Positions 9,408 to 41,375 of a DNA stretch of 64,000 nt are shown here, in pieces. A program made the position numbers and the translations under genes. A model generated the notes under the pieces. It did not search any database. It had not been told where the DNA came from and saw nothing but the letters and a program-made list of their open reading frames with translations. Origin of the DNA: Methanobacteriota archaeon (lineage in GTDB: Archaea; Halobacteriota; Bog-38; Methanoflorentales; Methanoflorentaceae); the NCBI GenBank assembly GCA_963720465.1, contig OY970393.1, positions 1,856,001 through 1,920,000 of the forward strand. The letters run 5' to 3'. The first letter of the stretch is position 1; each line of letters starts with the position of its first letter.

Positions 9408-9720
9408 CTAAAATGGCGTCTTATCGAAAATTCCTTGATATCCTGGTCGTTGAGCTGCAGATACACCGGCGTAACGTTCAAACTCGAATGCCCGAGCACC
9501 TGCCGCAGTCGCCTGATATCTCAGCCGTTTCGCGCACAGTGGATCGCATATGAGTGTCGAAAGGTGTGTGGGTTGGCGTCTTTAGGATGACCGAACTGTA
9601 GCGCTTGACGACATTGCCACCTGCCGTTGTTTGACAGCAAAGATAGTCTGATCATCGCGCACTAGTGAGCCGCTGCAAGAACCTGATCGACCTGCCCTCT
9701 CGAGGTAGTCGGTATACTCT
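9408..9720 (-). pseudogene. Tyrosine recombinase remnant D (catalytic Tyr retained)
   Basis: Across frameshifts and a stop: NPHTFRHSYAIHCARNG*DIRRLRQVLGHSSLNVTPVYLQLNDQD..DKTPF*; homologous to 33953..34465. Confidence 0.8.
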
Positions 9721-10059
9721 TCACGCGCAGTGCCGAAAAGGCAACGGTAGCTGTCTTGAACGTGATCCATCGCAGCATGGCAGTGTGAAAAAATCAGTCG
9801 ACGGAGCGGCAATGTATCATCCGCCTGCGGCTAAAAAAAAGGGAGTCAGACGACAATCGAAGAGCAATATGCACGTATACCGTGCAATCTACGTATTGCT
9901 TCGCTCGAACATCACGCATCCGGTTTCAACAGAGATATCGGTACGCCTCCCGACTAGACGAGCACTTCTTTAAAAGCTTTTCGTCAGCATCCTCGTCCCT
10001 GCACTGCTGACCGTCAAAATTGCGTCTTCTACATGAGTGTTCTTCTTTTTGAGCGCGAT

Positions 10060-10653
10060 TTACGGTATCCACTTAAATATGACGTCCGCATCGCGTGGCG
10101 GCGGTGTCTCGATATCTTTCACCGGATAGCCGAAAATGAGCGGCACCATCAAACGGTACCCTTCCGGCACGTCCAGCTCTGTCAGCGTGTTCTGATCAGA
10201 ACCCAGAGGCATACCTAATCCTATCCAACAGCTGCCGATGCCAAGTGACCTGGCGGCGATCAGCATGTTCTCGGCTGCAGCCGCGCAGTCGTACTCATGC
10301 GAAGTATACGCGTGCGGCATTGCGAACATGAGTATGAGCACTGGAGCATTGTAGAATATGTTAAATTCCGGCATTTTCAGCGCTTTCATAACGTTCTCCG
10401 GCCGCTTAATCTCGGGGCCAGAACTCGTGCCCATGTCTAGCCACAATTTTTTCGCTCGCTCGGATAGCCTGTCTATCATCTCCCTGTTCTTGATGACCAC
10501 GAACCGCCGCGGTTGGTCTCTGGTGGGATACGGTGAAAACGGCGCATACGTGCCCGCTTTGATCAGTTCTCTGATAAGGTCGTCGGGCACCTCATTCGGC
10601 TTGTAATCCCTCACAGACCTCCTTAGATAGATGTTCTCAAAAACGGTGTTCAT
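10060..10653 (-). CDS. Nitroreductase family protein
   Basis: RRSVRDY, AP..QP..FVVI, DCAAAAENMLIAARSLGIGSCWIG, FGYP motifs. Confidence 0.92.
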   Translation of the reverse strand: MNTVFENIYLRRSVRDYKPNEVPDDLIRELIKAGTYAPFSPYPTRDQPRRFVVIKNREMIDRLSERAKKLWLDMGTSSGPEIKRPENVMKALKMPEFNIFYNAPVLILMFAMPHAYTSHEYDCAAAAENMLIAARSLGIGSCWIGLGMPLGSDQNTLTELDVPEGYRLMVPLIFGYPVKDIETPPPRDADVIFKWIP

Positions 10654-10984
10654 AATATTCGTCCGCCGCCTCCATAGGTGCCACAACAATTAAGCTTTTG
10701 TTACTCTGGACTCGTGTCGGCGGTGCGCGGCATCACAAACAAAAGCTTCTTTCGTTTATCCGAGCTTTTTCTTTTAAGTGGACCTGATCGACTGAGGCTG
10801 ACCCGCCAAGATTTTGGCGGCTGCGTTTGGGTCAAGTTTAACGCAGCTAAACCCCGTCGTCTCACATGTTCCAACGCTTCAACAAGCTGAGATCAGTAGG
10901 CGTGGTTACTCACGCATAGGCCTTGGAAATGCACGCAGTCAGCGGAGCTATGGTGGTAAGAACCCGGTCTGCAAACAGCTCATG

Positions 10985-12878: not shown

Positions 12879-14351
12879 ATGCGCGCATATAAAATCGTCC
12901 CTATTTCTATAGCAGTTCTTCTCGTTACCGTGCTATTTGCGGGTGTCATCACCGTGAGTGTGGCTTCGACTCCCCTGACCCCATCCTCCGGACTCTCCCT
13001 CTCGGCCAGCACCACCGCCCCCACCGTCAAGCAGTCCGTCACCTTCACCGCCACTCTCAAGAGCGGCTCAACGGACCTGTCGTCCAAGTCCGTCACCATC
13101 TACCACTACCTCAACGGCGTCCGCTACAACGACGCCGCCAAGGCCACCAACGCCAATGGCCAGATCACCCTCACCACGAGCTTTGGCTCCGCCGGTAAGC
13201 GCACCTACTACGCCACCTTTGCCGGTGACAGCTCCTATCAAGCATCGACAAGCAGCGTCGTCACCGTCAACGTGAAGGCCGATCCCGAGCCACAACCGAG
13301 CGTTACACTCACGGCGTCCACCACCGCCCCCACCGTCAAGCAGTCCGTCACCTTCACCGCCACTCTCAAGAGCGGCTCAACGGACCTGTCGTCCAAGTCC
13401 GTCACCATCTACCACTACCTCAACGGCGTCCGCTACAACGACGCCGCCAAGGCCACCAACGCCAATGGCCAGATCACCCTCACCACGAGCTTTGGCTCCG
13501 CCGGTAAGCGCACCTACTACGCCACCTTTGCCGGTGACAGCTCCTATCAAGCATCGACAAGCAGCGTCGTCACCGTCAACGTGAAGGCCCAGAACACGGT
13601 CGACCCCCCAACCAGCACTCAAACTATCTATTACGTTCCCCAGGCGGGATCAACGTGGGTCAACCAAGGGACGGCAGGCGCCAGCTATAACGCGTACTGC
13701 AGCAATCCTGCCTCATTTCAGACCCAGTCAAATGGCTACCCCTATTGGGGTGACGACACGAGCAGTGATTTTGTCTGCATCCCGGCGGGCAGCGCAACCA
13801 ACAACCAGAACGTCGTTTCGTGGGAGATAGGGTTTCATTTCTCCGGAGTAGTGGCTGGCCAGCGCTACCAGAAAATTTGGGATAAAGCGTATGGCGGGTT
13901 CTTCATTGAAATTGACACCAATTACGGCCCTAATGCGAGTTACCTGACCCTCTACCGCGCCACGACCGGCGGCAGTGGCGCGCGGTGGTACATACCCACT
14001 ACTACGCCACTCCGCGCAGGCCACAATTACTACATTCAAATTTCGTGGAACACGAGCGCGGGCCCGGGACACGAACCGTATCCGACGATCTGGATCGGTG
14101 AGGACGGAAAAGCCCCGGTGCTTCAAACGAGCTGGGACGAGAGCGGCGGTGCTCTTGCCGGAACCGGATCGTGGTACAACGACGCAGTAGGGTCTGCGAA
14201 CCTGGGAAATACGGCGTCAGACGGTGGCCACGACACGTCGTCGAAGATTGCCCCGCTCAACGGCGGCATCTTTGTGTATCGGCAATTCAATTCAATCATT
14301 AATTTCAGCAATGGCGGAAACTGGAACACCGATAAACTGCGCTGGGCCTAG
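12879..14351 (+). CDS. Secreted protein with two identical Ig-like domains and a C-terminal beta-rich (possibly LamG/ConA-like) domain
   Basis: Signal peptide; duplicated ~90-aa Ig-like unit (VTFTATL..YYATFAGDSSYQAS..VTVNV); Trp/Tyr/Gly-rich C-domain. Confidence 0.8.
   Translation: MRAYKIVPISIAVLLVTVLFAGVITVSVASTPLTPSSGLSLSASTTAPTVKQSVTFTATLKSGSTDLSSKSVTIYHYLNGVRYNDAAKATNANGQITLTTSFGSAGKRTYYATFAGDSSYQASTSSVVTVNVKADPEPQPSVTLTASTTAPTVKQSVTFTATLKSGSTDLSSKSVTIYHYLNGVRYNDAAKATNANGQITLTTSFGSAGKRTYYATFAGDSSYQASTSSVVTVNVKAQNTVDPPTSTQTIYYVPQAGSTWVNQGTAGASYNAYCSNPASFQTQSNGYPYWGDDTSSDFVCIPAGSATNNQNVVSWEIGFHFSGVVAGQRYQKIWDKAYGGFFIEIDTNYGPNASYLTLYRATTGGSGARWYIPTTTPLRAGHNYYIQISWNTSAGPGHEPYPTIWIGEDGKAPVLQTSWDESGGALAGTGSWYNDAVGSANLGNTASDGGHDTSSKIAPLNGGIFVYRQFNSIINFSNGGNWNTDKLRWA
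13010..13589 (+). repeat. 271-bp direct repeat (13010-13280 and 13319-13589), apparently identical
   Basis: Direct comparison by eye; offset 309 bp. Confidence 0.9.
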
Positions 14352-18223: not shown

Positions 18224-18928
18224 TTATAGCCTCGTCGATGCAAGTAGAGCCATCAAATTGCGGACGTTTTGCTGTTCGACGACAAATCGCGGCGGAATAC
18301 TGCGTTGAATGAACCCCGATATCCCGAGCACTTCTTCCATTTCAGGAGAAAGCGCGTGCATTGGTCGCCCTCTCCTATCTGGTTTCTTTTGGCTGATCAG
18401 TATCGCTTTTTCTAACAGCCTGCTGTCCCCGGCACCGGCTACCACGACGAGATCGCGTAAGGAATTTCGGCGCTTCACGTGTGCGTTGTTACTGTACCGC
18501 TGAAGGCTTTCTGCGAGCTCAGCTTCTGATAACTTGTTAAACTCCGTGACGTTGTCCACGTCGAAATATCCGATGATGTACAGAGCTTCGTCGTATTTGG
18601 CAGTCGCAAATGGCCGCAGTCCGGCGTAGAATACGAGCAGATCTCCTTGAACGAGCTTCAGCAGGGAATAGCGCTTCAGTGTCGGATCGCCGTACGTGCA
18701 GGTGAGAAACTCGGGGTCTTCGTGCATCGGCGCGTTCTTGATGCTCGACGGAACGTAGGCTGAAAGGCGCTTCCCCCTTCTCCCAATTCTGTCGTTATAC
18801 GTCGCGGCTCCCGGCGCGGGAAAGCTCTCGGGAATTGGGACGAACTCGAACGATCCATCGTCAAATATGGGACTGAGCGTCCCTCCGCACCCCTTATCGA
18901 TACCTACGCGCAACAATAGTGCCTTCAT
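18224..18928 (-). CDS. Second Nmad3 family protein
   Basis: Same length (234 aa) and motifs as 3777..4481. Confidence 0.75.
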   Translation of the reverse strand: MKALLLRVGIDKGCGGTLSPIFDDGSFEFVPIPESFPAPGAATYNDRIGRRGKRLSAYVPSSIKNAPMHEDPEFLTCTYGDPTLKRYSLLKLVQGDLLVFYAGLRPFATAKYDEALYIIGYFDVDNVTEFNKLSEAELAESLQRYSNNAHVKRRNSLRDLVVVAGAGDSRLLEKAILISQKKPDRRGRPMHALSPEMEEVLGISGFIQRSIPPRFVVEQQNVRNLMALLASTRL

Positions 18929-19103
18929 TGCAGCCATACAGGTGAGGCGTACTTCAATAAGTCTTGCCCTGGGTGGCTTTCTGAAAACCGCGGTTGCTAG
19001 CTGAAACGTGTGCCCCAGTGCAAACAAGTCGACCATCAAAAAGAAACAGTAATGAGGAGCAATGTCGTGCAACTATTCAGCGTTAAAACTAGGAGATTCA
19101 GAA

Positions 19104-26884: not shown

Positions 26885-27129
26885 TGGAGGCGATGCCGTT
26901 CGTAACCTCTGTTCGAATGCTCGAAATTATTCGCTTTCTGCTTCGACTTAGACTGACTAGGCGTCGCTTTGGGCCACGTGCAGTGTGTCAGGAAGTGCAA
27001 AGTCGATACCGGTAAAGGGAGCAACGCTCCTCGTTGTCGCAGCACCACTCGCTGGAGTAATTGTCAAGAGGCGCGGTGCAAAGCTGCCCATCTTCATAGC
27101 GACTGCACTCCTTGCGGCAAGCGCCTACT

Positions 27130-27350: not shown

Positions 27351-27352
27351 AA

Positions 27353-28216: not shown

Positions 28217-28296
28217 TGTCCCTCTTAATTATAAGTTGTCAAATTATTATTTACTTAGCCGTTATTTATATATACCTCTTACACCCCATATCAATC

Positions 28297-28316
28297 GTTG
28301 TTAAATTTTTGACAAC
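28297..28316. promoter_or_regulatory. Putative TrmB operator GTTGTTAAA-TT-TTTGACAAC, with an extra half-site at 28233-28243
   Basis: Near-perfect palindrome in the divergent trmB/ABC intergenic region. Confidence 0.6.
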
Positions 28317-28431
28317 TTCAATAGCAAAATGATTGCAGGCAAAGATAGCATGGAAACTAAAAATCTTTGCTTATATTCGGCCGACCTGCTCCGTGCACGG
28401 CCACGAGAGTAAAAACTGACTGAGGTTTATA

Positions 28432-29427
28432 ATGTCCGATATCATTAGCGTCGAAAACCTTGTCAAGGTGTATCCTGGAGGTACACGGGCTGTCGATGGG
28501 ATCTCGTTCAGTGTGAGCGAAGGCGAGTTCTTTGGGTTCCTCGGCCCGAATGGTGCGGGAAAGAGCACGACGATCCAGGTTCTCACGACACTGCTGAAGA
28601 AAACCTCCGGCTCTGCGACCGTTGCTGGCTACGATGTTGAAACGGATGCACGGGAGATACGCAAAGTTATCGGCGTCCAACGCCAGGAGACCATTCTGGA
28701 CGGGGACCTGACGGGCCGCGAGAACCTCACCCTTCAAGGGCACCTTCAGCGGTTGCACGGTGATGCTCTCAAAAAACGCGTGGACGAACTGCTCACACTC
28801 GTCGAGCTCTCGGACGTCGCTGACAAGAGGGCGGCACACTACTCCGGAGGGATGAAAAAGCGGCTCGACCTCGCATCTACCCTTGTTCACAAACCACGCG
28901 TGCTCTTTCTAGACGAGCCGACCTCGGGGCTCGATCCCCAATCGCGCGCAGCTATATGGGAGCACCTCGAGACGCTCAACAGAGAGGGGGGTGTAACGGT
29001 TTTTTTGACAACCCAGCAGATGGAAGAAGCCGACAGGCTCTGTCAACGGCTCTCAATAATCGATCACGGAGAGATTATTGTAGGTGGCTCGCCCGTAGAA
29101 CTCAAACATCAACTCGGCGGTGACACCATCACGCTGTCACTGGCCGACGCGGACTCAGACGGCGTAAGAGATAGATCAAAGCGGATTGTTAGCGGCATTC
29201 AAGGTGTTACCAAAGTCCTCGATATCGAAACGGGACTGGCGGCATACGCCAAGAACGCGGGCGCTCTCGTTCCCGATATCGTACGACTATTTGACGAGAA
29301 CGGGATTCGCTTGACGTCAATCAACGTCGCATCTGCCTCGCTGGATGACGTCTTTTTGCAGCACACAGGAAGACGGATACGATCAGAAGAACTGTCGAAA
29401 GGAGATACGTGGAAAGGACACGTGTGA
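28432..29427 (+). CDS. ABC exporter ATP-binding subunit (DrrA-like)
   Basis: GPNGAGKST, YSGGMKKR, LFLDEPT; the H-loop reads TTQ instead of TTH. Confidence 0.92.
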   Translation: MSDIISVENLVKVYPGGTRAVDGISFSVSEGEFFGFLGPNGAGKSTTIQVLTTLLKKTSGSATVAGYDVETDAREIRKVIGVQRQETILDGDLTGRENLTLQGHLQRLHGDALKKRVDELLTLVELSDVADKRAAHYSGGMKKRLDLASTLVHKPRVLFLDEPTSGLDPQSRAAIWEHLETLNREGGVTVFLTTQQMEEADRLCQRLSIIDHGEIIVGGSPVELKHQLGGDTITLSLADADSDGVRDRSKRIVSGIQGVTKVLDIETGLAAYAKNAGALVPDIVRLFDENGIRLTSINVASASLDDVFLQHTGRRIRSEELSKGDTWKGHV

Positions 29428-29438
29428 GGTGATAGAAG

Positions 29439-30209
29439 ATGTATGACGCTCTCCTTGACGTGTGGCACCTCTACATCAGGGCCTTAAAAAAGACTATACG
29501 GACTCCGATCCTCATCTTCAGCGCGCTCGCCCTACCAGTGCTGTTTCTGATTCTCTTCTCGCAAATTTTTACGCAGTTTGGAAACCTCCCAGGATTCCCT
29601 GCCGGCGGCTATGTCCAATTCGTAGTGGCTGGCATCATTATTATGAACCCCTTGTTTGATTCAGGGGGCGCAGGGGAGTCCGTGGTTGACGACATCAATT
29701 CGGGATTTGTTTCAAAGATGCTCGTGACGCCCGTGAACAGGGCCGCCATTCTGTTCGGTCGGTTACTGCATGATATGACCATGGTGCTTTTCCCGGTTGC
29801 TATAACGCTGGTGCTCGCGTACGCGCTTGGTGCAACGGTCATAACAGGGGCCCCAGGAATTCTGCTGATTCTTCTCACCGCCGCTTTCTTTGCGTTGGCT
29901 ATGTCAGGGCTGACGATGGCAATCGGGGTGAGAACAAAAAGTTCGCAAGCAGTCGCAAGTTTAGATCTTGTGGTGACGTTCCCTCTTGCGTTTGTGAGCA
30001 CAGCGTTCGTTCCATACCAGTTCCTTCCGGGCTGGGCGCAGGCCTTTTCGAATATCAACCCGTTTAGTTACGTGGTCGACGCGGTCAGGGTACTGATGTC
30101 CACAGGATTTGTTTGGAGTACCATTCTGGCCGCGTATGCAGTTATAGCGGTGTTCGCGGTAGTGACGGTAGGGGCCACATTATTTCAATTCAGGAGTGTA
30201 GTGAAGTAG
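29439..30209 (+). CDS. ABC-2 type permease (DrrB-like)
   Basis: Six TM helices; LVTPVNR, LPGW..NPFSYVVDAVR motifs. Confidence 0.9.
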   Translation: MYDALLDVWHLYIRALKKTIRTPILIFSALALPVLFLILFSQIFTQFGNLPGFPAGGYVQFVVAGIIIMNPLFDSGGAGESVVDDINSGFVSKMLVTPVNRAAILFGRLLHDMTMVLFPVAITLVLAYALGATVITGAPGILLILLTAAFFALAMSGLTMAIGVRTKSSQAVASLDLVVTFPLAFVSTAFVPYQFLPGWAQAFSNINPFSYVVDAVRVLMSTGFVWSTILAAYAVIAVFAVVTVGATLFQFRSVVK

Positions 30210-30303
30210 GCGATTGCAACGCCTCGACGCGAACGGGATCTTCAAAACCAGATAGCCTGCCGCTTTAGGTACCGTCACACGAAGCGCATTAGGAGCCTCG
30301 AAC

Positions 30304-31152
30304 GTGCACACGCTAGAACTGCACAACATAAACTCGGGATACAGCAAGAAAACCGTCTTGCACGACGTAAGTCTCGCGATACAAGAGCCGTCGATATACG
30401 TAGTATTAGGTCCAAACGGCGCAGGGAAGACGACGCTGTTTCGGACCATCGCCGGCATTTTAGAGCTATATTCGGGCGAAGTCGTGTTTGACGGTGAAAA
30501 CGTCACCTCATCGCGTGACATCAGAAAGCGGATGAACTACCTCTCCCACTACAACGCGATCCCGGAGGAGATGACGGTGTACAACGCTCTCACGTTTTAT
30601 GCGAACACGCAGGGAGGAAGCGCTGACGAGGTTCTCGCGCTACTACACCTACAGGAACTTCGGGATAAAAAAATCTCTGATCTCTCGCAGGGACAGAAGA
30701 AAAGAGTCTCAGTTGCGAAGGTGTTCCTAAGGGAGCGAGACCTCTACTTAATGGACGAGCCCACATCAAACCTGGACCCGGGGTACTCGAAGGAGATCAG
30801 AGACATCCTCCTGAAACTGAGCAAGGACAAGATTGTACTGTACTCTACGCATAACCTCTACGAGGCGAATGACATCGGCACGAACCTCATCTTGATCAAG
30901 AATGGGACCATTGCGCTAGCTGAAAAGATCGCAAACATCAAACTGAGGGAATATAGGGTTGGGATTAGGACGTCGACTGACATTTCAAAAATTGTCGATG
31001 CGAAGAAGGGAGAGCAGGGCTACTACGTCATGAGCGTTTCGAGCCCCGAAGAGGCAGGACAAGTCCTGAAGACGCTAATCGAACACGGGGTACTGGTGAC
31101 GGAAATGCGGCAGCTCGAAAACCCGTTGCAAGAGCTGTTCGAAACGGCGTAA
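30304..31152 (+). CDS. ABC transporter ATP-binding protein
   Basis: GPNGAGKTT, LSQGQKKR, MDEPT, YSTH motifs. Confidence 0.9.
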   Translation: MHTLELHNINSGYSKKTVLHDVSLAIQEPSIYVVLGPNGAGKTTLFRTIAGILELYSGEVVFDGENVTSSRDIRKRMNYLSHYNAIPEEMTVYNALTFYANTQGGSADEVLALLHLQELRDKKISDLSQGQKKRVSVAKVFLRERDLYLMDEPTSNLDPGYSKEIRDILLKLSKDKIVLYSTHNLYEANDIGTNLILIKNGTIALAEKIANIKLREYRVGIRTSTDISKIVDAKKGEQGYYVMSVSSPEEAGQVLKTLIEHGVLVTEMRQLENPLQELFETA

Positions 31153-31163
31153 TCGGAGAACCC

Positions 31164-31895
31164 GTGAAGAACAACGTTGTGCGCCAGCTGAGGCGCAAAC
31201 CTGCAATAATCACCGTTAAGAGAGGACTCGCTCTGAGCAAATCGTACGTCGTGTTCGCGATATTCTTTACGTCGGTGGCTATCCTCACGGCAAATTTTGG
31301 CAACGCATTCCTGAGAGGCGTACCTGGGAATAGCGGCATCTACGTCGGGACGTCACTCTCGCTTCTCTCCGTCCCGCTGACCGCAATTGCCGCTGTGATG
31401 CTTACGACGTCCGTCATTTTGCTCTACGTCTACGACAAGAATAACGGCGTGCTCGAGTATTTCCTCTCGCTCGGGATGAATCAAGAAGACATCTACAAGC
31501 GCTACCTGAAAGCGGGTGTCATTCTTGTCTTACTCCTTATGGCGGGAGTGGCCGTTGCAAACGTTGCGGTAGGATTGGCTCTGAGAGGAGGAGTTACGCT
31601 CCCTCTCGTGGCTACGGGCGTTGCCACCGCATTAGCCCTCTCCATCGTCTCTTTCGATACGATGGCAATGATGACGTTCAGCTCATTGCAGAAGCAGAGG
31701 GCAGGAGCAAATCAACCATTAGGCCTCGCCTTGGGGGGGTTGCTGGTGTTGCCCGCGTACTTAACTGCGTTCATTTTGCCTGGTATTGTAGCAGTCGCCG
31801 TAGATCTTGCCGAAGCCGTCATCATTGCCGCTCTGTCGATCGCGCTGTTGCTTCTTTCAAGCAGACTCATCAGCAGGGAGAAGCTCCTTCCATAG
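31164..31895 (+). CDS. ABC-2-like permease
   Basis: Six TM helices; DKNNGVLEYFLSLG; follows the ATPase. Confidence 0.75.
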   Translation: MKNNVVRQLRRKPAIITVKRGLALSKSYVVFAIFFTSVAILTANFGNAFLRGVPGNSGIYVGTSLSLLSVPLTAIAAVMLTTSVILLYVYDKNNGVLEYFLSLGMNQEDIYKRYLKAGVILVLLLMAGVAVANVAVGLALRGGVTLPLVATGVATALALSIVSFDTMAMMTFSSLQKQRAGANQPLGLALGGLLVLPAYLTAFILPGIVAVAVDLAEAVIIAALSIALLLLSSRLISREKLLP

Positions 31896-32284
31896 CAACT
31901 CGCGCGTGCAAGACCAATTAGTACAGATTTTCAGTAAGAAAGTAAGAACTTCGGCTTGCAGTTAATCGTCGCTAGCCTCAAGGATCCGAAACGATTTCTC
32001 CAGCCTTGTTTTTCCAGAGGTCTTTACCGAAAAGAAGACTGGATGATGGCGCGTGTGTGAGAGCAGCGGAAGAAAGCACGGCAGAAGTTTATTGCACAAG
32101 CGTGGCCGCATCGCCGGAGTCAATGCCAAGTTCTCGTTCAGTTTGTAAAATAAGAAGGGAAAAGAGGTGACTTCTTAATCAAGGTACTTCCGGGTGCTCA
32201 AAGTAATAGATACCCATCACTCAGGAGCCGTAACACAAAAGTGCCCCTCCATTGAGTTCGTAGTCAGCATACGCCTGAGATACG

Positions 32285-32503
32285 TCAGCGGCACCAGCAG
32301 CACCCGCACGTTCGCCGACCTCCGCTGAGCTCGTAGTCAGTGTACAGCGGGCAGCCCGGGCAATTACACCCTTGCATCTCGGGGTTTAATTCACTCGAGT
32401 TCATGGAGCAAAACACGCCACCCACGAGGCTGTTCTTGATAAACGTGAGACAGCTCTTGCAGATGCACTTTGCTTTTGTCTCTGCGTTCAAAGGAACTTT
32501 CAT
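32285..32503 (-). CDS. DUF2769 family Cys-rich small protein with an aberrant C-terminus
   Basis: CICKSC..FC..GCNCPGCP; GGAGGTGA RBS; paralog of 59283..59522. Confidence 0.7.
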   Translation of the reverse strand: MKVPLNAETKAKCICKSCLTFIKNSLVGGVFCSMNSSELNPEMQGCNCPGCPLYTDYELSGGRRTCGCCWCR

Positions 32504-32604
32504 GTGGGAATCACCTCCCTCACGCTTTTCATGCACACTGGCTGCGTCGCCTTCTGCTTCGGCATCTGCATCGGGAACGCCTAAACTTCTTTTAATCATC
32601 ATGA

Positions 32605-33453
32605 CTACCACAAATACAGCGAGGTGGGATCGGGACCTTCCCCTGCGTTTTTAACAGCTACCTCTATCGTCTCTAAAATGTAATCTGAAGGGAGAGCACT
32701 AGCCAGTCCAGAATTCTCAACAAATTTTATCCGTTGCTCTTTAGTTTGGAGGCTTACTACAATATCCTCGTACGGTAGATACGCCGAGACGATGCCAATA
32801 ACGCAAGGGAAATCGATTGGCTGCGTTCGATCAGTAGATGCACCATATTGAGGTCTCGATAGGATGACGGGACTTCCGCTATTTCCTGGAAAAACGAATG
32901 TATCTAACAAGAAGCTAGAAGTAGGTCTCTCTAACGCATCCTGTATGCGAGCGACAGATCCAGATCTCGCAATAGGATAGCGCCACATACGATCAATGAG
33001 TCCCATAGGATAGCCAAGAACATAAACCGGATCCCCCTCCGAGACGTTAGCATCGCGCATTTGATCAATAGTCATAAGAGTTTCGACATCAAACGATAGA
33101 ATTTGCTGTCCGTCTTCCTTAAGCTTTGCACCGTGGAGGCCTATTACGGCAATGTCGAGATCATCGTGAGGGTGGCTAACCCACCGTTGAGGGGTCTCCC
33201 GTTCATCATCTATAAGCGGCACGCGATAATCTTTAGTTTCCTTACCCCTTTCGGGGTTAAACCGAAGCACAACAGAGTTCTCTCCTTCGAGCACATGCTT
33301 ATTGGTGACCAAGAAGACGTGGCGGCCGATTTCACACCCGTCTTTTATGACCGGTCGCCCGACTAAGAAGCCTGTTGCACCCCACATGGTGCCATTCTGT
33401 TCGACATAACCGATTGCAACGACGCTATCCAGCGCTACGGGCAACAGAGCCAT
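32605..33453 (-). CDS. Trypsin-like serine protease (Trypsin_2), no signal peptide
   Basis: ATGF, VTNKHV (His), DIAV (Asp), GYP, PGNSGSPV (Ser). Confidence 0.88.
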   Translation of the reverse strand: MALLPVALDSVVAIGYVEQNGTMWGATGFLVGRPVIKDGCEIGRHVFLVTNKHVLEGENSVVLRFNPERGKETKDYRVPLIDDERETPQRWVSHPHDDLDIAVIGLHGAKLKEDGQQILSFDVETLMTIDQMRDANVSEGDPVYVLGYPMGLIDRMWRYPIARSGSVARIQDALERPTSSFLLDTFVFPGNSGSPVILSRPQYGASTDRTQPIDFPCVIGIVSAYLPYEDIVVSLQTKEQRIKFVENSGLASALPSDYILETIEVAVKNAGEGPDPTSLYLW

Positions 33454-33596
33454 TTTCTACTCTCTTGTTGGGCCTCACTAATATGTGGTCTTGGTCCTTT
33501 TGTTTTGGCTTAGTGGCTAGCACACGTTAAACGCTTCTATTCATAGCATCAGCACAAAGGTGTCCACACAAAAATAGAGGGTGCGAGGACGCTCAT

Positions 33597-33670
33597 ATGA
33601 ATCCCAATGAACTCTTAGCCCGATCAAAGCGGGCGAATCAGAGACCACCGAACTTAAAGAGAATTTTAGC
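33597..33670 (+). pseudogene. N-terminal fragment of an AlbA_2/Schlafen-type protein
   Basis: MNPNELLAR, a frameshift, then KAGESETTELKENF. Confidence 0.45.
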
Positions 33671-33952
33671 GGCCGTTATCTATGCCGTAGAGGCGTCAAG
33701 CTAAGCGCCTATAAGGGATGCGGAGCAAAAAATGAAGGTCTCTAGATGGATGGAAAGAGTTTCAAGCACGAGCTGAAGGTCTTCAAGGAGTTACATGACA
33801 GGAGCGGATTGCTTGGAAAAGCTGGCAGCTATAGAGACCGATTTCCGGAAATCTTCAACCGAAAGACGCTGATTTCGAGGAGAAGCTGCATTAACGAAAT
33901 CGAAACAAGTTGTACCAGCTTTTTACTACCCCTTTTGCTCCTGCGTTAACAA

Positions 33953-34465
33953 CTAGAATGGCACGGCATCATAGATTTGCCGTAAGTCGCTCTCTTCGAA
34001 CTGCAGTAAGGTCCAATGTCCGAGCAACATCTGAACCCGGCGAATGTCGGTGTTGTGCCGCGCCAAGTTGACCGCAAAGGAGTGCCTAAGCGTGTGCGGA
34101 TGCACGTCCGGACCGATATTGGCGAGGATCCCGTATTTCTTGACGATGTTGTAAAGCTGCCGTCGCTTGAACGGGAAGAGTTTTGCATCATTTTCAATGT
34201 CTTTTTGTGCCGCGTATGAAAGGAGCTCGTCCACCGAATCCTTTTTCAATAAAACACGCCGTTCTTTGCCGCCCTTGGCGTTGGTTATCGTAATGATGCC
34301 GTTCTTTTTTTCGATGTTCGTCGGCGTGACGGCCAGCACCTCAGAGGAGCGCATGCCTGTCTCCCACATAGTCTTGATGATAAGGTAGTCGCGATAGTTG
34401 CATGTACCAGCCACATCAAGCATTGCGTGCACCTCCTCGCACTCAAGGAATTCAAGGTGTTTCAT
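33953..34465 (-). CDS. Short tyrosine recombinase B (catalytic domain only), with the catalytic Tyr segment deleted
   Basis: RD..ETGMRSSE, KGGKER, HPHTLRHSFA, LLGH present; GH[xxLNVTxVY]LQ is replaced by GHWTLLQ. Confidence 0.85.
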   Translation of the reverse strand: MKHLEFLECEEVHAMLDVAGTCNYRDYLIIKTMWETGMRSSEVLAVTPTNIEKKNGIITITNAKGGKERRVLLKKDSVDELLSYAAQKDIENDAKLFPFKRRQLYNIVKKYGILANIGPDVHPHTLRHSFAVNLARHNTDIRRVQMLLGHWTLLQFEESDLRQIYDAVPF

Positions 34466-35068
34466 AAAGCTCGCGCCTCGATTGCTCAAAATAGCTTGCT
34501 CGCCTTTAGAAGACGTTTTACGTCAATGGCACACTGAATCTCCAAACGTGCTTTTTTATTATGGAACGGGGTTTCGAGGGTACTCCGTTCGTTGGGGTGG
34601 GAGTTGCCGTCGGCGGGGCTTGCTGCGGGTGGTGAACCGTCACACCCAGCTATTGCAACGACCTCAGCGCGACGACAAAACACCGATAGTGTCGCGAAGA
34701 GGCGGTTATCATATCTCATGTTTCAGCCCCTTTTAAATACGTAAGACTCGGCTGCTCAAACTCAAGGTTCTGCTTACCGTGCTCAGCTATAGCATGACCA
34801 TCTACTAAGTTGTCGCGCGCTGCGAAACACAATACGACTTTGTAGCTGCCAATTGTAACACGCCTCTACAAATATTCTCGCAGTTTTGACCTCGAAAACC
34901 AAACCTGAGTTTGGAACTTTAGGAATTGGCGAGAAGTTTTGCAAAATGTTCAAAATTCCTTCTCCAGCCCTTAAATAATGCTATAGTAAGGGCAAAAGGA
35001 GGCCGCTAAGGCGTTATTCATTGCACACAACCTAACGATGAAGAACGAAGGGTGGTAATGTTAGCGAC

Positions 35069-36046
35069 GTGCAGAGCATGACTGAGCAATCGTCGGATTA
35101 TACAACGGATGCCTACGCGTTGCAGCTGCAAGGCCTGACAAAGACATACGGTGACCTGGTTGCCGTTGACGATCTCAGCCTGCAAATCAAGAAGGGAGAG
35201 ATATTCGGATTTTTAGGACCGAACGGAGCCGGAAAGACCACCACGATCAGTATGATGGTCGGACTGCTGACCCCGACAAGCGGTGCGGTGCTCATCAACG
35301 GACAAGACCGGGCGCAAGCGCCGAAAAGGAGCATAGGCATCTGTCCGCAAGACCTCGTCTTGTGGGAGGAGCTGACGTGCACCGAGAACCTCATCGTCAT
35401 GGGCGACATGTACGACCTTCCACGGGCCGTCACGAAAGAACGCGTGCGCTCATTACTCGCTGCTCTTACACTCTCTGAAAAGGCGAACGCACGTGTGTCG
35501 CAGCTGTCCGGAGGGATGAAGCGCAGGCTCAACATCGCACTCGCTGTTATTCACGATCCTGATATCGTCGTGCTGGACGAACCCTCTACGGGCTTAGACC
35601 CGCAATCTCGTCTGTTGCTGTGGGACTTTGTTCGCTCGCTCAAGAACAAAGAGGGAAAAACCATCATCCTCACAACCCACGTTATGCAGGAGGCCGATGC
35701 ACTGAGTGACCGCATCGCCATCATCGACCACGGCAAGCTTCTTCAGTTCGACACACCCGCAAACCTGAAAAAGAAGATCGGGTCCGGTGACATCATCGAG
35801 ATGCAACTCACCGAACGAGAGAAGAACGCAGCGGTCATTGAAGACCTCAAATCCGTCAACGGCATCCTAGAAATCAACGACGCGAGCGGAAAGATCACCA
35901 TACGAGCGTTAAACGCCGTCAACCTGCTCCCTGAGATAACCGAACGCGTCGATGCGATTCGCACCCGGATCGCGGATATTTCACTTCGGGAAAACACGCT
36001 CGAGGACGTCTTCATCTACCTCACCGGAAGGGGGCTGCGGGAGTGA
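35069..36046 (+). CDS. ABC exporter ATP-binding subunit
   Basis: GPNGAGKTT, LSGGMKRR, LDEPS, LTTH, TLEDVFIYLTGR motifs. Confidence 0.92.
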   Translation: MQSMTEQSSDYTTDAYALQLQGLTKTYGDLVAVDDLSLQIKKGEIFGFLGPNGAGKTTTISMMVGLLTPTSGAVLINGQDRAQAPKRSIGICPQDLVLWEELTCTENLIVMGDMYDLPRAVTKERVRSLLAALTLSEKANARVSQLSGGMKRRLNIALAVIHDPDIVVLDEPSTGLDPQSRLLLWDFVRSLKNKEGKTIILTTHVMQEADALSDRIAIIDHGKLLQFDTPANLKKKIGSGDIIEMQLTEREKNAAVIEDLKSVNGILEINDASGKITIRALNAVNLLPEITERVDAIRTRIADISLRENTLEDVFIYLTGRGLRE

Positions 36047-37395
36047 CGGTGAAGTCTCTCTCATTAGCGATTAAGGCGCTCAAGCGAACAATTCGGGACC
36101 GTCGCACGCTTTTTTTCCTCTTGCTATTCCCTATAGTGCTCATGATCATTTTTGCTTTCGCCTTCGGCAGTTCCAACTCGCTTGGCACTGGGACAGCGCC
36201 TCACGAGATTGTGGTCATTAATCTCGACCAAGGGGCAGCGGTGTCCATCAACAATACCACCGAGCACATCAACGCCGGCGCGAAGTTCACGCAGCTCCTC
36301 GAAAACGTCACCTACCCGCAAACCGACACCCACATGTTCACCCTCAATAACGTGAGTGCAGATCAGGCCCTGGCAATGCTCAAAGGGCGCGCCCTCGATG
36401 CGGTGATCACGATTCCAGGGAATTTTTCGCAAGCGGTCGTATCATTGACCAATGCCTCCACGCGGGCTGAAACGACCTCAGATATCGGGCTGCGGGTAAT
36501 AAACGGAAGCGCCGCTCAGCTGCCGGTGAATACCACGCTTCCGAAACAGGGCAACGTCACCACACAGGTCATCGTCGAAGGGGACACGGATAGTACCGCA
36601 TTTGCCGCCGCGCAAAGCCTGATCTTCAATCTCCTCCAACAGTACCAAGGCCAGATACAGGCCATGACGATTCGACAGGTTGACGACACGCTGGCACAAA
36701 ACGGAAGCAATTCGAACATCAACTACATTTCGGCGGCCGTACAGCCACTCACAGGCACCCGATCACTAACGCTCTTCGACTACCAGGCACCAGGAGTGAT
36801 TGTGTTCGCCTTGCTCTTGCAGGTCGGCAGCGTCGCGCAGGACCTTGCGAGGGAATCTGCCCGCGGGACGCTCGGTAGACTCAAACTCTCCAATATGCGG
36901 TCATTTGACCTCCTGTTCGGCACGTTGCTCAGCTGGATCGTCTTCGCCGTAGCGCAAATACTGCTCCTCCTCGGAGTCGCCGTGGCGCTCGGGTTTGAGT
37001 GGTTCGGCGGCGCGAATTCCATCGTGCTTGCCCTGCTCATTGGCCTCATAGGCGGGATAGCCTCGATTTCGCTCGGCTTGCTGCTTGCGGCGTTTACCAC
37101 CAACGAGCGGCAGGCGGCACAATTAGGGGTGCTCATTGCCGTGCCGGTGTTTTTCCTCACCGGGTCGTTCTTTCCACTCCCCAACGAGATACTTGGAACA
37201 GCGTTTGGGACGACGTTCCAGGTCTATGACCTGCTCCCCTGGACACAGGTCGCGGATGCGTTGCGTCAGATCCTCGTCTTCGGGAGTGGCTTTGGCGACG
37301 TAGCGGCCTACGTGGGATTTGCGATCGTTCTCACCGCAATCCTCTTTGTCATTGGCGTGATTTTTTATTCGCTGGTGCGGTTGCGGCCGGAATAG
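36043..37395 (+). CDS. ABC-2 permease with a large extracellular domain
   Basis: N-terminal TM helix, sequon-rich loop, five C-terminal TM helices; 4-bp overlap with the ATPase. Confidence 0.88.
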   Translation: MTVKSLSLAIKALKRTIRDRRTLFFLLLFPIVLMIIFAFAFGSSNSLGTGTAPHEIVVINLDQGAAVSINNTTEHINAGAKFTQLLENVTYPQTDTHMFTLNNVSADQALAMLKGRALDAVITIPGNFSQAVVSLTNASTRAETTSDIGLRVINGSAAQLPVNTTLPKQGNVTTQVIVEGDTDSTAFAAAQSLIFNLLQQYQGQIQAMTIRQVDDTLAQNGSNSNINYISAAVQPLTGTRSLTLFDYQAPGVIVFALLLQVGSVAQDLARESARGTLGRLKLSNMRSFDLLFGTLLSWIVFAVAQILLLLGVAVALGFEWFGGANSIVLALLIGLIGGIASISLGLLLAAFTTNERQAAQLGVLIAVPVFFLTGSFFPLPNEILGTAFGTTFQVYDLLPWTQVADALRQILVFGSGFGDVAAYVGFAIVLTAILFVIGVIFYSLVRLRPE

Positions 37396-37973
37396 AGCCT
37401 TCCAGCTGGCAGAGGAGATGGCTTGGAAATGCTCGCTATCGCGGCGGGAACGTTCATATTTAGCACGGCGATGACAACGGTGCAAATACTCGTGTTCTGC
37501 CTCGTCGCCACCCCCTACATTTCGAGCCTTGTGACGTTTGGTGCCATAGCGCGGGAAATGAGCGGACAGAGATGCATCCGCCCGCCATCGCGCGAAAACG
37601 GGCGAAACTTTTGTTCTGACCATGCAAATCCGATCAAGAAAGGAGTCTCTATTCTCTCACGACAATATACTGAAGCCGTATCGTGGGCCCCTATACATTG
37701 GAGGTGAGAAAGAGATGTCATTGCATGTGCGCATAGCTCCTGACTTGGACGACGAGGAACACGTTCGGAAAGGATCGAAAACAGTGAATGGGAAGAGTAG
37801 TAATAATGACATTGCCATCCCATCATACCCTAAACATCCTATTCCTATTAGTTCCCACGAGTGATCAGGGAAAATTCGAAAAAATACTCTTTATGTTTTT
37901 GTACACTCTATGTTTGTGTTTACCGCCTAGGACAGCACGGAGTGCGCGACCACAACCGTTATTGCCGAGGCCG

Positions 37974-38252
37974 TCAGCCCTGAGACCCGCTCGCTGTGTC
38001 CGTGCTGCCTTCCCTACCGATAACATGCCCTAGAAAAAGGCGTTTGCTCAGTGGGTTACCAGATAGTTGACGTGCTTCCTTATCCGGTTCTACATTCTCT
38101 GCGTCCCTGAAATGTGAAACAAGAGCGTTGAGAGCTTCCACATTATCGAGGCTAATCCGGGACTCCTCAAAGGTTTTGGTCTTCACTTCTTCAAGCGCAC
38201 GACTTAGCAAGTCAGCTTCGCCGTCCGTCAAAACTAACGCCTTGGTGAGCAT
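37974..38252 (-). CDS. Small hypothetical protein
   Basis: 92-aa ORF with an ATG start and a GGGGG RBS-like element. Confidence 0.4.
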   Translation of the reverse strand: MLTKALVLTDGEADLLSRALEEVKTKTFEESRISLDNVEALNALVSHFRDAENVEPDKEARQLSGNPLSKRLFLGHVIGREGSTDTASGSQG

Positions 38253-38425
38253 TTTCGCCCCCCTAGTAAGTGATAGTCACACGGAGTGCATGACATATTT
38301 CATGTTTGATTTTTTCTAATGGCAATATAAGCGTCAAAATGGCCGTTATTCCTCGCACAGAGCTCCTAGCTTGAACAGATAAATGCTAAATCCAAGCTAC
38401 GAGTAGCGTACATCAATACCTTTGA

Positions 38426-40024
38426 TCACCCGATGCTGCGACGCTGGAACCCGATGAGGCCGACGATTGTAAGGATCAATGCCGCGAGGGTCAGCGAAAC
38501 TAGGGGCATCACGGACACCCCGCTGACAAGGACCGCTGGCACGTGGTTGAATGGCGAGATGTTTAGGATCGACTGGTTCACCTGCAACGTCTCGCCGATT
38601 AACTCGACCAGGATGAACGCCCCCAGTGCCCCCCAACTCACGAACGACAGCCGAGGTGCAAGACCGTACAGGGCCATCGCGATCCCCCCTATCACCCAGA
38701 CGGCTGGCAAGTAGGCGAGCGTGGCGACCAGCACCCGGGGCAGCTCGTACCCCACGTTGCCGGTGCTCAGCCCGTAGGTCAGGCCGGCTGGCACGCCGAA
38801 GGCCGTGAGCACGACCGCCGAGCCAATAACCATAAGGGCGAGGTCACTCGACGCCCACCGCACTCTGCTGACTGCGGCGCCAAGCACGTGATCGAGACGC
38901 CCCTCGACCTCCTCGGACTGTAGCTGCAGCGTGGCCGTGATCGCGTATGCGCCGGCGATCCAGCCGAGGAACGTGAGAGAGAGGGTAATAAGGGCGTCAG
39001 TGTATGCCGAGGGGCCACCAAAATGGGCGAACAAGTTTGTAAGCTGTGCGTTAGCGGCCAGCAGGTTCGCGGAGGTTTTCGCAAGATAGCCAATCATAAC
39101 GCCGTACGCCGCAAACAACGTGGCCCAGGCAAGCAGTGTGCGCCGGTGCAGCCTCCACGCTAGAGCTAGTGGGCCGCGGAGTCGGGGCGACGCCCTCGCC
39201 GGGCCAAGTCGCGGCCTCAGAATGCCGGCGCCGACGTCTCGACGTGAGGAGAGCGCGTAAGCCATCGCGATCAGCACGATGACCGCGCCGAGGAAGAGGG
39301 CAAATACCGCCCACTGTTCGTTGGCGAATGGTTGGACGAGGTGCATCCACCCAAAAGGCGAGGTCCACGACAGCCACGACTGCCCGCTCGGCTCGTTCGC
39401 ATCGCCAACAGCGTTCAACAGGTAAAACAGAACAAAAAATGCCCCTGCGATGCCCCTCGCGACCCCGGCGCTCTCGGCCAGCTGCCCTGCCACGCCGGCG
39501 AGGGCAGCAAACGTCCACCCGATCGCTGCGAACGACAGCCCCAGTGCGACTGACCCGGCGACGGGAAGCCCAAAAGCGACCAGCGCTGCAGCGACGAGAG
39601 CGGCGATCGCTAGGTCGGCGAACAGCGTCACGATCAAGCTCGCCGACAACGGCGCTCGTCTGCCCACTACGCCCGAGCCCAGCAGCTCGTACCGTCCAGT
39701 CTCCTCGTCGGCGCGCGTGTGCCGGATCACGGTAAGCGCGCTCGCCCCGGCAACGATCAGTGCAGCGAAGAGGCTAGACCGCCACGCGGTTAGTCCGCCG
39801 ATGGTCGGAGAGGACACGGGACCGAGCAGCGCGACGAATCCCGGACTGTTCACTATCTGAGCGGCGAGCATCTGTTGCAACGCGGCGGTGGGATAGAGAC
39901 GCACGAACGCGGCAGCTACGACGACGACGAACAGGGGCGGCAGCGCGATCCAGATCGGCAGCAGAAGGCGATCCCGCCGCAGGATTAACCGAATGAGTGC
40001 GCCAGTGCCGCTAAACTCGCTCAT
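38426..40024 (-). CDS. ABC exporter permease (TnrB3/polyketide-ionophore resistance-like, ~12 TM)
   Basis: GTGALIRLILRRDR, RHTRADEETGRYEL, RRDVGAG, EEVEGR, SPFNHVP motifs. Confidence 0.88.
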   Translation of the reverse strand: MSEFSGTGALIRLILRRDRLLLPIWIALPPLFVVVVAAAFVRLYPTAALQQMLAAQIVNSPGFVALLGPVSSPTIGGLTAWRSSLFAALIVAGASALTVIRHTRADEETGRYELLGSGVVGRRAPLSASLIVTLFADLAIAALVAAALVAFGLPVAGSVALGLSFAAIGWTFAALAGVAGQLAESAGVARGIAGAFFVLFYLLNAVGDANEPSGQSWLSWTSPFGWMHLVQPFANEQWAVFALFLGAVIVLIAMAYALSSRRDVGAGILRPRLGPARASPRLRGPLALAWRLHRRTLLAWATLFAAYGVMIGYLAKTSANLLAANAQLTNLFAHFGGPSAYTDALITLSLTFLGWIAGAYAITATLQLQSEEVEGRLDHVLGAAVSRVRWASSDLALMVIGSAVVLTAFGVPAGLTYGLSTGNVGYELPRVLVATLAYLPAVWVIGGIAMALYGLAPRLSFVSWGALGAFILVELIGETLQVNQSILNISPFNHVPAVLVSGVSVMPLVSLTLAALILTIVGLIGFQRRSIG

Positions 40025-40935
40025 CGGGCGCGTTCCCCTGTCTGGAGTTCGTAATGGCGCAAGAACAGATCCTCGAGCGTAGGCGGGGCACTCGTAAGCG
40101 CGCGCACGTCGAACGGGGTGAGGTGTTCGATTACGCGATTGATCGCACCGGCATCCACGGTAAAATGCGCGCTGACGCCGTCGACGCGTATGTTGTGCAC
40201 GCCCGGAAGTTCGCTGAGTCCGGTGACAGGGCGAGCGGTTTCCACTGAGACCGATATTCGGGTGAGGTGGCGCAGTTCGGCAAGTGTTCCTGACTCGACG
40301 ATCTTGCCTTCCCTAATGATGCTAATTCGGTCACACAACGCCTCGACCTCGGCGAGGATGTGACTGGAGAGCAGCACGGTCTTGCCGGCCTGCTTGATCT
40401 CCGTTACGCAGTCCCGGAACACCGCTTCCATCAGGGGATCGAGGCCCAACGTCGGTTCATCGAGGATGAACAGTTCGACGTCAGAGACAAACGCGGCGAT
40501 AAGGGCCACCTTCTGTCGGTTCCCCGTCGAATACGTCCGACACGGCTTTGTCGGATCGAACTTGAAGCGTTCCACCAGCTCGTCGCGACGCGGCTGGTCG
40601 AAGCCTCCGCGCAGTCTGCCTAACAGGTCGATGACCTCGCCACCGGAGAGGTTTGGCCACAGGCTCACGTCACCTGGCACGTAGGCCAGCCGACGGTGGA
40701 GCGCCGCAGCGTCGCGCCACGGATCAGCGCCGAGTACGCTGACATTCCCGGCGTTCTTGCGGAGCAATCCGAGCAGAATGCGGAGAGTCGTGGTTTTTCC
40801 GGCACCGTTAGGGCCGATAAAGCCAAATACCTCGCCGTCTTCGACCGTGAGGTCCACGTCGTTAAGTGCCAGGGTTTTCCCGTAATACTTGGTCAGATCC
40901 TCAATTTCGATCACCGACAAAGGATTCGCCTCCAA
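40021..40935 (-). CDS. ABC exporter ATP-binding subunit (TnrB2-like)
   Basis: GPNGAGKTT, YSTGNRQK, LDEPT, LSSH, PTLEDLFLRHY motifs. Confidence 0.92.
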   Translation of the reverse strand: MEANPLSVIEIEDLTKYYGKTLALNDVDLTVEDGEVFGFIGPNGAGKTTTLRILLGLLRKNAGNVSVLGADPWRDAAALHRRLAYVPGDVSLWPNLSGGEVIDLLGRLRGGFDQPRRDELVERFKFDPTKPCRTYSTGNRQKVALIAAFVSDVELFILDEPTLGLDPLMEAVFRDCVTEIKQAGKTVLLSSHILAEVEALCDRISIIREGKIVESGTLAELRHLTRISVSVETARPVTGLSELPGVHNIRVDGVSAHFTVDAGAINRVIEHLTPFDVRALTSAPPTLEDLFLRHYELQTGERAR

Positions 40936-41099
40936 CCATTTTATTCGTCCCGTTCATTTGTAGGCTGCTTAAAGTCTGAGACTTTCAACCCATTACTTAG
41001 CACAAACCACAATGCTTAATCTTCTTTCGCACTTCGATATCAACGAAATCGAAACAAGTTGTGCCGGATGTTCTCGCCGTTTTTGCTCCCGGGTAACAG

Positions 41100-41375
41100 C
41101 TAGAACGGCACAGCATCACAGATTTGCCGTAAGTGGCTCTCGTTGAACTGCAGATACACCGATGTGACATTCAACTTCAAATGTCCGGGCAACATCTGAA
41201 CCGACGAATGTCGGCGTTGTGCCGCACCAAGTTGATAGCAAAGGAGTGTCGCAACGTGTGCGGGTGCACGTCTGGACGAATACCGGTCAGGGTTCCGTAT
41301 TTCTTGACGATGATGTGGGCTGTGGTTGCTTGAGGGGAAGAGTTTTGCATCATTGTTTATGTTGTTTAGTACCAC
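41100..41375 (-). pseudogene. Tyrosine recombinase remnant C (frameshifted, catalytic Tyr retained)
   Basis: NDAKLFP../VHPHTLRHSFAINL../GHLKLNVTSVYLQFNESHLRQICDAVPF*. Confidence 0.85.

Follow-up and report, generated by a model that had tools for sequence, protein, structure and literature searches.

Here, we describe four small tyrosine recombinase genes, designated A, B, C and D, that lie on one strand of a 64,000-nucleotide stretch of archaeal DNA (the window; positions 1,856,001 to 1,920,000 of contig OY970393.1, from a member of the Methanoflorentaceae; coordinates below are window positions unless marked as genome positions). Three of them, A, B and C, are followed by a common tail of about 60 bp whose terminal 18-bp block is, from the alignments, a true edge of the recombinase module, and we suggest tentatively, judging the case to fall slightly short of even, that the neighbours of these three copies are old site-specific joints formed beside the recombinase gene. 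A preceding sequence-only reading had proposed an integrase-plus-attachment-site (att) module that captures or swaps accessory cargo; the conserved tail, the block as module edge and a recurrent loss of homology at recombinase 3' ends in a sister genus speak for such a module, while the palindrome offered as its site, the scattered breakpoints, the want of an intact tailed copy, the age of the events and the many paralogues without a tail speak against it. If the recombinase did make the joints, they would point to a small module for gene capture or insertion whose recombinase is without the domain that normally holds the DNA core site, and to a route by which accessory genes, for instance those for exporters and methyltransferases, could spread among the abundant methanogen relatives of peat and sediment; if plain decay produced them, the window is an ordinary pseudogene graveyard.

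The source genome (G000) comprises 2.31 Mb in one contig and encodes McrA, and close relatives of the window's proteins are labelled 'Halobacteriota archaeon' or 'Euryarchaeota archaeon'. Comparisons were made within 24 genomes of the same archaeal family, the source genome included and four of them single contigs; G numbers other than G000 denote further genomes of this family and L numbers loci within them. The region is variable, with few segments conserved with G010.

Four inactive copies of a short recombinase

Profile searches confirmed the presence of four minus-strand copies of one integrase family, with PF00589-family matches at 9431-9580 and beyond (D), 26783-26884 (A), 33956-34489 (B) and 41103-41363 (C), all in the same orientation (4/4). 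Copy B (33953-34489, minus strand) is an open frame of 178 aa from a TTG codon, or 170 aa from an ATG, that scores 98.1 bits against PF00589 (cut-off 27.1; positions 2-156 of 172) and whose match to the archaeal XerA profile is confined to positions 93-243 of 263. It is thus, as had been claimed, the only open full-length frame and restricted to the catalytic domain, but it is not whole: while R47, K72, H132, R135 and H158 of the R, K, HxxR, H set are retained, six codons including that of the nucleophilic tyrosine are gone, a loss that B alone shows among 16 aligned members (GHWTLLQF in place of GHSSLNxTxVYLQF).

The other copies are more extensively damaged. Copy A (26754-26884, minus strand) is a 3' stub of about codons 135-178 that has the same 18-nt deletion of the tyrosine codon as B and a 1-nt deletion besides; copy C (41100-41377, minus strand) is a 3' stub from about codon 91 that keeps the tyrosine segment and carries a frameshifting 1-nt deletion; and copy D (9408-9720, minus strand) is a pseudogene of a different mini-recombinase sub-lineage, with an internal deletion, an in-frame TGA and a frameshift near its end. 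The complete catalytic set of R-K-H-R-H and tyrosine is absent from every copy in the window, and is present in the family at large and in the copy at genome positions 2258996-2259508. Judged by their reading frames, all four are dead, each being broken by loss of the tyrosine, truncation, frameshift or stop; none can be an active recombinase, and nothing in the window can recombine by itself now.

Copies A, B and C form one old sub-lineage, with coding-stub identities of 90% (A-B), 83% (A-C) and 87% (B-C), and D belongs to another. The view that A is B-like on its integrase side holds for the 18-nt deletion common to the two, but most other sites at which A equals B are changes private to C. 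Copy D is 82% identical to a copy at genome positions 1136386-1136577, the homology stopping about 2 nt beyond the stop codon, and has an orthologue in G010 (contig C5, about 116.4-116.9 kb) beside the same YgjP-like gene.

A conserved tail ending in an invariant block

The tail of about 60 bp common to A, B and C, likewise noted at the outset, is present for 58-60 nt after the stop codon in all three (26694-26753, 33893-33952 and 41042-41099, respectively, all minus strand) and absent from D. Its last 18 nt, the block ACTTGTTTCGATTTCGTT, occupy 26694-26711, 33893-33910 and 41042-41059. Ahead of the block, the tails are 77% (A-B), 70% (A-C) and 70% (B-C) identical; within it, identity is 100% in all three pairs; and over the 150 nt beyond it, A and C are 95% identical and B is unrelated to either (34-36%).

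By a block search of the 24 genomes and protein-guided retrieval, four further tail-bearing copies were found, none of them an intact gene. The block is identical in A, B, C and the G015 locus (L032), differs at one position in the G012 locus (L138), and is invariant in five of six copies from four genomes. Allowing two mismatches or fewer, it occurs in the source genome at A, B and C only, and neither a second att copy nor a direct repeat was found, the search covering att cores of about 12 nt or longer.

The age of these copies gives the block its weight. Copy B differs from its full-length relative L002 by a non-synonymous divergence (dN) of 0.20 and a synonymous divergence (dS) of 1.39, and from the G010 stub by 0.16 and 1.14, so that the recombinase genes diverged for a long time under purifying selection. 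Neutral DNA as old as this would be expected to be past alignment; as the tail can still be aligned, and the block is invariant, at dS above 1, the block was probably once a functional element at the module edge. Conserved RNA structure in the tail was not found: folding the consensus of six tails gave 5 pairs (-2.7 kcal/mol), none of which is compensated. Among viral contigs, the tail was present in 0 of 118 pattern matches. A likeness of the block to a stretch within the coding sequence of B, and of the palindrome's right arm to a stretch upstream of A, was set aside as chance; the CGAA/TTTCG motif concerned occurs about 179 times in the genome.

Joints at the block end

Three classes of joint are found at the end of the block. 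In the first (A and C), ...TTCGTTGAT is followed by ATCGAAG; in the second (B, G010 and G012), ...TTCGTTRAT is followed by GCARC, the G010 and G012 loci (L033 and L138) reading TTCGTT-RAT-GCARCWTC; and in the third (G015), ...TTCGT is followed by CGGCG. Across these four genomes (G000, G010, G012 and G015), three unrelated right-hand continuations therefore begin within 4 bp of one another at the block end, and this comparison marks that end as the module's edge. The recombinase remnants concerned are a stub from about codon 93 in G015, with unrelated DNA after its ...TTCGT; a stub from about codon 127 in G010, in which the tyrosine is present; and a decayed copy in G012, the last two continuing like B.

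The continuation of B, from 33892 downward (AATGCAGCTTC...), is common to G010 and G012 for about 16 nt, and the G010 and G012 loci part about 50 nt beyond the block. The G012 flank leads to a gene that, from its N-terminus, we take to be an LCM-type methyltransferase, and the G010 flank to one that we presume to be AlbA_2-like, both being readings of the sequence and not profile matches. About 40 nt beyond B's tail, the window also holds a perfect 14-nt palindrome, GATTTCCGGAAATC (33840-33853).

These events are old. Copies A and C carry one joint inherited twice, not two independent ones, and the B-type joint recurs in two further species although dS exceeds 1, so that the joint events were ancient. 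Contigs of four runs (X2, X3, X4 and X7) were compared over 24000-42500; those of X2-X4 span the A, B and C joints unaltered. Two variant joints were listed, 26521>38868 (28 letters between) and 34060>41238 (14 letters between), which derive from diverged relatives with 19-35 differences and not from excision. The contigs thus hold no excision or variant joints, a result that is neutral either way since contigs are blind to rare variants; nothing in them shows present-day activity of the kind that ongoing cargo swapping would entail.

The exporter operon and the palindrome

Both A and C had been said to run into the same ATP-binding cassette (ABC) exporter, which is true in that the two flanks are homologous, but the one at A is a remnant only. 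The operon after C (38426-40935, minus strand) encodes an ATPase (40021-40935) and a 532-aa permease (38426-40024); at A (26108-26587, minus strand), the start of the ATPase is fused in frame to the end of the permease, leaving about 21 ATPase codons and the last 140 or so permease codons, with the equivalent of positions 38840-40871 at C (about 2.03 kb) gone. The homology runs in two blocks, 26885-26524 against 41249-40872 and 26521-26108 against 38839-38426, and breaks off precisely at the stop codon of the permease. From this alignment, A and C are two old copies of one unit of stub, tail and ABC operon, 83-85% identical outside the leader. The fluoride riboswitch RF01734 (57.7 bits against a threshold of 34; 25863-25921, minus strand) lies between this remnant and a prenyltransferase-like gene (24841-25752, minus strand), an unusual neighbour to find behind such a riboswitch.

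The permease has one orthologue in 13 of the 23 other family genomes. The operon of G019, from another genus (L268, contig C117), is 90.1% identical to that at C over 2,623 nt of DNA, against 82-87% for same-genus orthologues, which suggests that the operon is mobile and has been transferred between genera. Homology between G019 and C spans 41023-38407, so that it sets in immediately beyond the palindrome's right arm (see below); upstream of the G019 operon lies AT-rich DNA with neither a recombinase, in the 472 nt available, nor a palindrome. A leader of about 110 nt ahead of the ABC operon is conserved across genera. A TTGATG hexamer following the permease stop at C and in G019 bears some likeness to the class ii joint, but is too short to weigh.

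The palindrome TTCGAT-N9-ATCGAA (21 nt) does occur at A and C, at 26685-26705 and 41033-41053 only. A longer imperfect symmetry, seen by eye, extends over 26673-26711 at the A joint, with the block as left arm and 26673-26693 as right arm, and over 41021-41059 at the C joint; repeat scoring at C found 9-nt arms (41033-41041 and 41045-41053), 89% complementary and 3 nt apart. With one mismatch or none, about 0.30 matches to the 6-9-6 pattern are to be expected in a window, and at least two matches turned up in 3 of 100 shuffles; on this expectation, and with A and C being one event by descent, the palindrome is of modest weight. As the general site of the module it fails, being confined to the A/C joint and missing from the same tail in three other species. 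Nor do breakpoints fall on it uniformly: in L034 homology ends ahead of the block, in B about 16 nt beyond it, and between L033 and L138 about 50 nt beyond it. Copy B keeps the left arm only (33893-33909), in line with the earlier view that its homology stops inside the spacer, but once relatives are included the A/C and B types are seen to share three more bases (TTCGTT-RAT). That the palindrome might belong to the ABC operon instead of the integrase, as would undo the earlier proposal, is half borne out: the palindrome accompanies neither partner elsewhere, being absent both from the tails of other species and from G019's ABC operon. On these comparisons it is a feature of one joint, A/C, and not of the recombinase module.

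A recombinase family lacking the core-binding domain

In the source genome, every match to PF00589 is of the short kind, and the sole intact, tyrosine-bearing copy is that at genome positions 2258996-2259508; intact relatives score 116-128 bits against this profile. The closest known protein is the archaeal XerA, which provides the best profile (NF040815, 114-153 bits) and the best fold (5hxy and 4a8e), and all of R, K, HxxR, H and Y are kept in the mini-recombinase family. Unlike XerA, however, its members are without the first 90 or so residues, which form the core-binding domain, and score below the cut-off of 220 bits; they are also multi-copy (G018 has 36 matches, G022 at least 64) and mostly decayed, and no dif site was identified.

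The absence of the N-terminal region holds for nearly all matches in the sample. The best NF040815 score in the source genome is 151 bits, over profile positions 92-263, and nearly all matches in the 24 genomes start at about positions 89-92, the exception being a 286-aa frame on contig C56 of G007 that covers positions 8-254; canonical XerA, defined by the profile's cut-off, was found in 0 of the 24. The structure predicted by AlphaFold for the intact copy (pLDDT 87.4) has the two XerA chains as best matches, with TM scores of 0.80 over the query and 0.54 over the target, as would fit a predicted catalytic domain alone. A split or separate core-binding domain was not found either: no frame in the source genome matched XerA profile positions 1-88, and the conserved stretch just upstream of the G022 copies has stops in all frames. 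The frames open with a conserved MK..DYLEKEQV, and a length of 175 aa is usual among the 120 metagenome relatives listed and among the whole copies in many genomes; viral contigs hold no close relative, the best identity being 35%. The recombinases are a lineage-specific, multi-copy, Xer-like family of about 175 aa that lacks the core-binding domain and mostly survives as 3' stubs.

Simple recombinases are described as consisting of core-binding and catalytic domains, and the passages concerned name no archaeal group without the former (PMC8138268); elsewhere it is noted that archaea without xerA may have recruited another recombinase (PMC2958812). The literature, these two papers being covered in part, yielded no account of archaeal recombinases that lack this domain, nor of arrays like those described here, and the supplements of PMC8138268 and PMC2958812 might list such proteins. 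That no canonical XerA occurs in the 24 genomes raises the question of how chromosome dimers are resolved, possibly by the single conserved intact mini-recombinase. This copy heads a tandem pair (genome contig C1, 2258396-2259508; L279, 5200-7529) whose second member is decayed and which is syntenic in G011. The pair is followed by an AT-rich non-coding stretch of about 1 kb in which the direct repeats TTTTTGRTATCAT are separated by 36 nt; TTTATAAAAGTGAGAGTTGAG, which resembles a promoter, stands behind the copies of the intact pair in several species; and an Rfam scan of the intact-copy loci returned nothing.

Recombinase arrays in the sister genus

In G022, mini-recombinases and their 3' stubs form dense, long same-strand rows, spaced at 1-5 kb and separated by one to three small accessory genes (contig C1 at 1.50-1.60 Mb and 2.46-2.54 Mb, among others; L120-L132). 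A count by eye of 57 matched segments in 260 kb gave 15 whole copies, about 28 C-terminal pieces and 1-2 that are N-terminal only. Within the same 260 kb, homology is lost between -4 and +5 nt of the stop codon in 223 of 341 paralogue pairs, and in 29 of the 44 pairs that are at least 85% identical. One clean case is a 287-nt pair, 97% identical including the upstream non-coding DNA, that ends exactly at the stop codon of the stub; its two continuations differ, and each is also found behind other recombinase stops.

A recurrent 15-mer, TTATGACTGCACAAA, occurs nine times in G022, nine in G018, four in G019 and two in G021, where a reversed-pattern control gave none. It usually lies 15-60 nt past a recombinase stop, at times with no recombinase ahead; it sits after an oligo-T or TATA-like run and persists behind a 30-nt stub or no stub at all; and homology behind it ends at 0, +10, +13 and +37 nt.

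Site-specific joints or paralogue decay

In this archaeal family, recombinase genes accumulate in one orientation in variable chromosome regions and persist mainly as 3' stubs. The gene of the A, B and C sub-lineage carried the conserved tail of about 60 bp, its terminal 18-bp block forming the outer edge of the module. If the joints are site-specific, the block would be the recombinase-side half of the module's recombination site, and the right-hand neighbours, namely the ABC operon, the stretch leading to the methyltransferase or AlbA_2-like gene and the third sequence, would be joints left by old site-specific insertion. We infer that the recombinase made these joints and that the block is its putative binding site, a recombinase being the simplest agent for moving its own gene or that gene's neighbours. 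In favour of this reading stand the catalytic-domain family itself, the persistence of the tail and block at high dS, the three continuations that set in within 4 bp, the end of the G019 operon's homology at 41023 when the joint is approached from the ABC side, the homology ends at stop codons in G022 and the common orientation of the copies.

A number of results weigh against this account. An intact, tyrosine-bearing gene with this tail was found in none of the 24 family genomes searched by block pattern, and of the 119 stretches listed when metagenomes were scanned for the block, L218 alone had the tail, as a duplicate of L138; most paralogues of the family are without any common tail. Of the four further tailed copies, that of G002 (L034), in which the tyrosine deletion is present, loses homology ahead of the block. 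With about five breakpoints spread over some 115 nt, a distance of 4 bp between two joints is not significant alone, and joint classes ii and iii have no right half-site of the kind expected of the core site of a simple two-armed recombinase. In the sister genus, TTATGACTGCACAAA looks like the promoter of the next gene, which would fit plain decay with retention of promoters, and third-codon-position entropy falls only slightly at the gene end (0.9 against 1.1-1.4 bits), with no clear constraint at the DNA level.

The strongest rival, a serious contender that we rate as possible but less than probable, is ordinary decay of paralogues with no site-specific recombination, in which flanks were replaced by illegitimate recombination or deletion and the tail is a 3' untranslated region with a T-rich terminator or regulator site. 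The 3' stubs would have been kept for their position next to the following gene's promoter, and the C-terminal half, being the best conserved, would be the easiest to detect; the A/C palindrome would be an operator of the ABC promoter, or an inverted copy that arose by chance or was templated at the joint. Decay accommodates at least five breakpoint positions behind the tail and several behind TTATGACTGCACAAA, as well as the latter's place behind a TATA-like run even where the stub is gone; four dead copies, a statistically modest palindrome and the same arrangement in contigs of three further runs (X2-X4) also suit it, and the leader conserved across genera implies that the area is regulatory. 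Against this, decay leaves unexplained how an 18-nt block remained invariant behind dead genes in four genomes at dS above 1, why three unrelated flanks begin within 4 bp of its end, and why the 97%-identical G022 duplicate ends exactly at a stop codon. By eye, the block is not AT-rich as an archaeal TATA box would be, the downstream genes differ between joint classes, and an operator has to contend with the G019 operon, which works without the palindrome.

A bolder extension, unlikely in our view, is that the family gave up canonical XerA and that its only tyrosine recombinases, proteins of about 175 aa with no core-binding domain, run an integron-like system of their own, with co-oriented accessory cassettes exchanged at the extreme 3' ends of recombinase genes or stubs, of which the window would be an extinct arm. 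On this view, the sister genus would exchange cassettes at the stop codon, and the sub-lineage of A, B and C at its 18-bp tail block.

Also proposed, and quite improbable, is that each short gene cassette is closed by the 3' stub of a recombinase, with or without the tail, and that this serves as the site at which intact mini-recombinases elsewhere in the genome shuffle cassettes in trans, crossing over where the stub ends. The spacing of the G022 rows, with small genes between co-oriented stubs, is what such cassettes would produce, as are the C-terminal excess, the clustering of homology ends at stop codons with one clean pair at 97%, and an accessory cargo of P-type ATPase, LCM methyltransferase, DUF1254/DUF1214 proteins and ABC exporters. 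Integrons occur in archaea, and the resemblance to them (IntI, attI, attC) extends to co-oriented small accessory genes, recurrent joints beside a tyrosine recombinase gene and a 'GTT' likeness that consists in the block ending in CGTT. The site here, however, follows the 3' end of a co-oriented gene instead of lying upstream of a divergent one, and there is no hairpin-type attC, the tail having no conserved hairpin. Integron-integrase profiles are matched at 70-89 bits against a cut-off of 265 (TIGR02249) and 47-63 against 435 (NF011946); stub 5' ends range from codon 28 to codon 151, so that no fixed site length exists; synonymous sites at the 3' end show no marked constraint; and the source genome keeps one intact recombinase, with no variant joints in contigs.

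That the frames of about 175 aa are int(C) halves of SSV-type 'suicidal' integrases, left in a row by repeated integration, would fit co-oriented C-terminal pieces but is very improbable, given their own conserved start codon and constant length, their varied truncation points, the absence of tRNA genes or fragments from the window, in which these were searched for, best profile and fold matches to Xer, and an E-value of about 0.002 against the archaeal phage integrase Pfam model.

Relationship to other known systems

In size and domain make-up, the family resembles the FimB/FimE tyrosine DNA invertases (about 200 aa, with no separate core-binding domain), and alignments to the NCBIfam invertase profiles span almost the full profile; short recombinases of the FimB/FimE type are active. 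The mini-recombinases score only 35-65 bits against cut-offs of 221-222, however, and no invertible segment was seen, the sole inverted repeat having 3 nt between its 9-nt arms at C and being absent at B.

Integrative elements that place an integrase beside att and grow by tandem accretion offer a further parallel, in that homology ends sharply at a short and constant distance from the recombinase gene, the DNA beyond differs between genomes, and co-oriented rows of old integrase remnants are present. In contrast to these, the copies described here have no second att copy or direct repeat within the reach of the search, no tRNA target and no close viral relatives, and the recombinase is without the DNA-binding N-terminal domains of such integrases.

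Other features of the window

The interval between the recombinase copies holds three further ABC pairs (28432-31895 and 35069-37395), a trypsin-like peptidase gene (32605-33453) and a TrmB-like regulator gene (27353-28216), together with accessory genes for nitroreductase, glyoxalase, thioredoxin, flavodoxin, methyltransferases, and Nmad3, HD and Sel1 proteins. Restriction-modification genes, listed among the cargo by the sequence-only reading, were not detected, there being no such domain in the 50 open reading frames scanned; a YgjP-like peptidase adjoins D.

Several repeats were also recorded. Tandem repeats of 120 nt lie in two blocks (265-1404 and 1774-2913), with up to 15 copies in register that are 60-89% alike and presumably encode a protein of 40-residue repeats. 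Two Nmad3 (nucleotide-modification-associated) genes, at 3777-4496 and 18224-19072, have a 105-nt stretch in common at 80% identity (4379-4483 and 18826-18930). A direct duplication of 282 nt, 99% identical (12999-13280 and 13308-13589), falls within the gene for a Big_3_5 (Ig-like) repeat protein at 12879-14351. Finally, the 17-mer CTTTTTTCGATTTCCTT is found, in one orientation or the other, at five places in the genome (contig C1: 346399, 350920, 351715, 824212 and 1704065) and may belong to a dispersed repeat.

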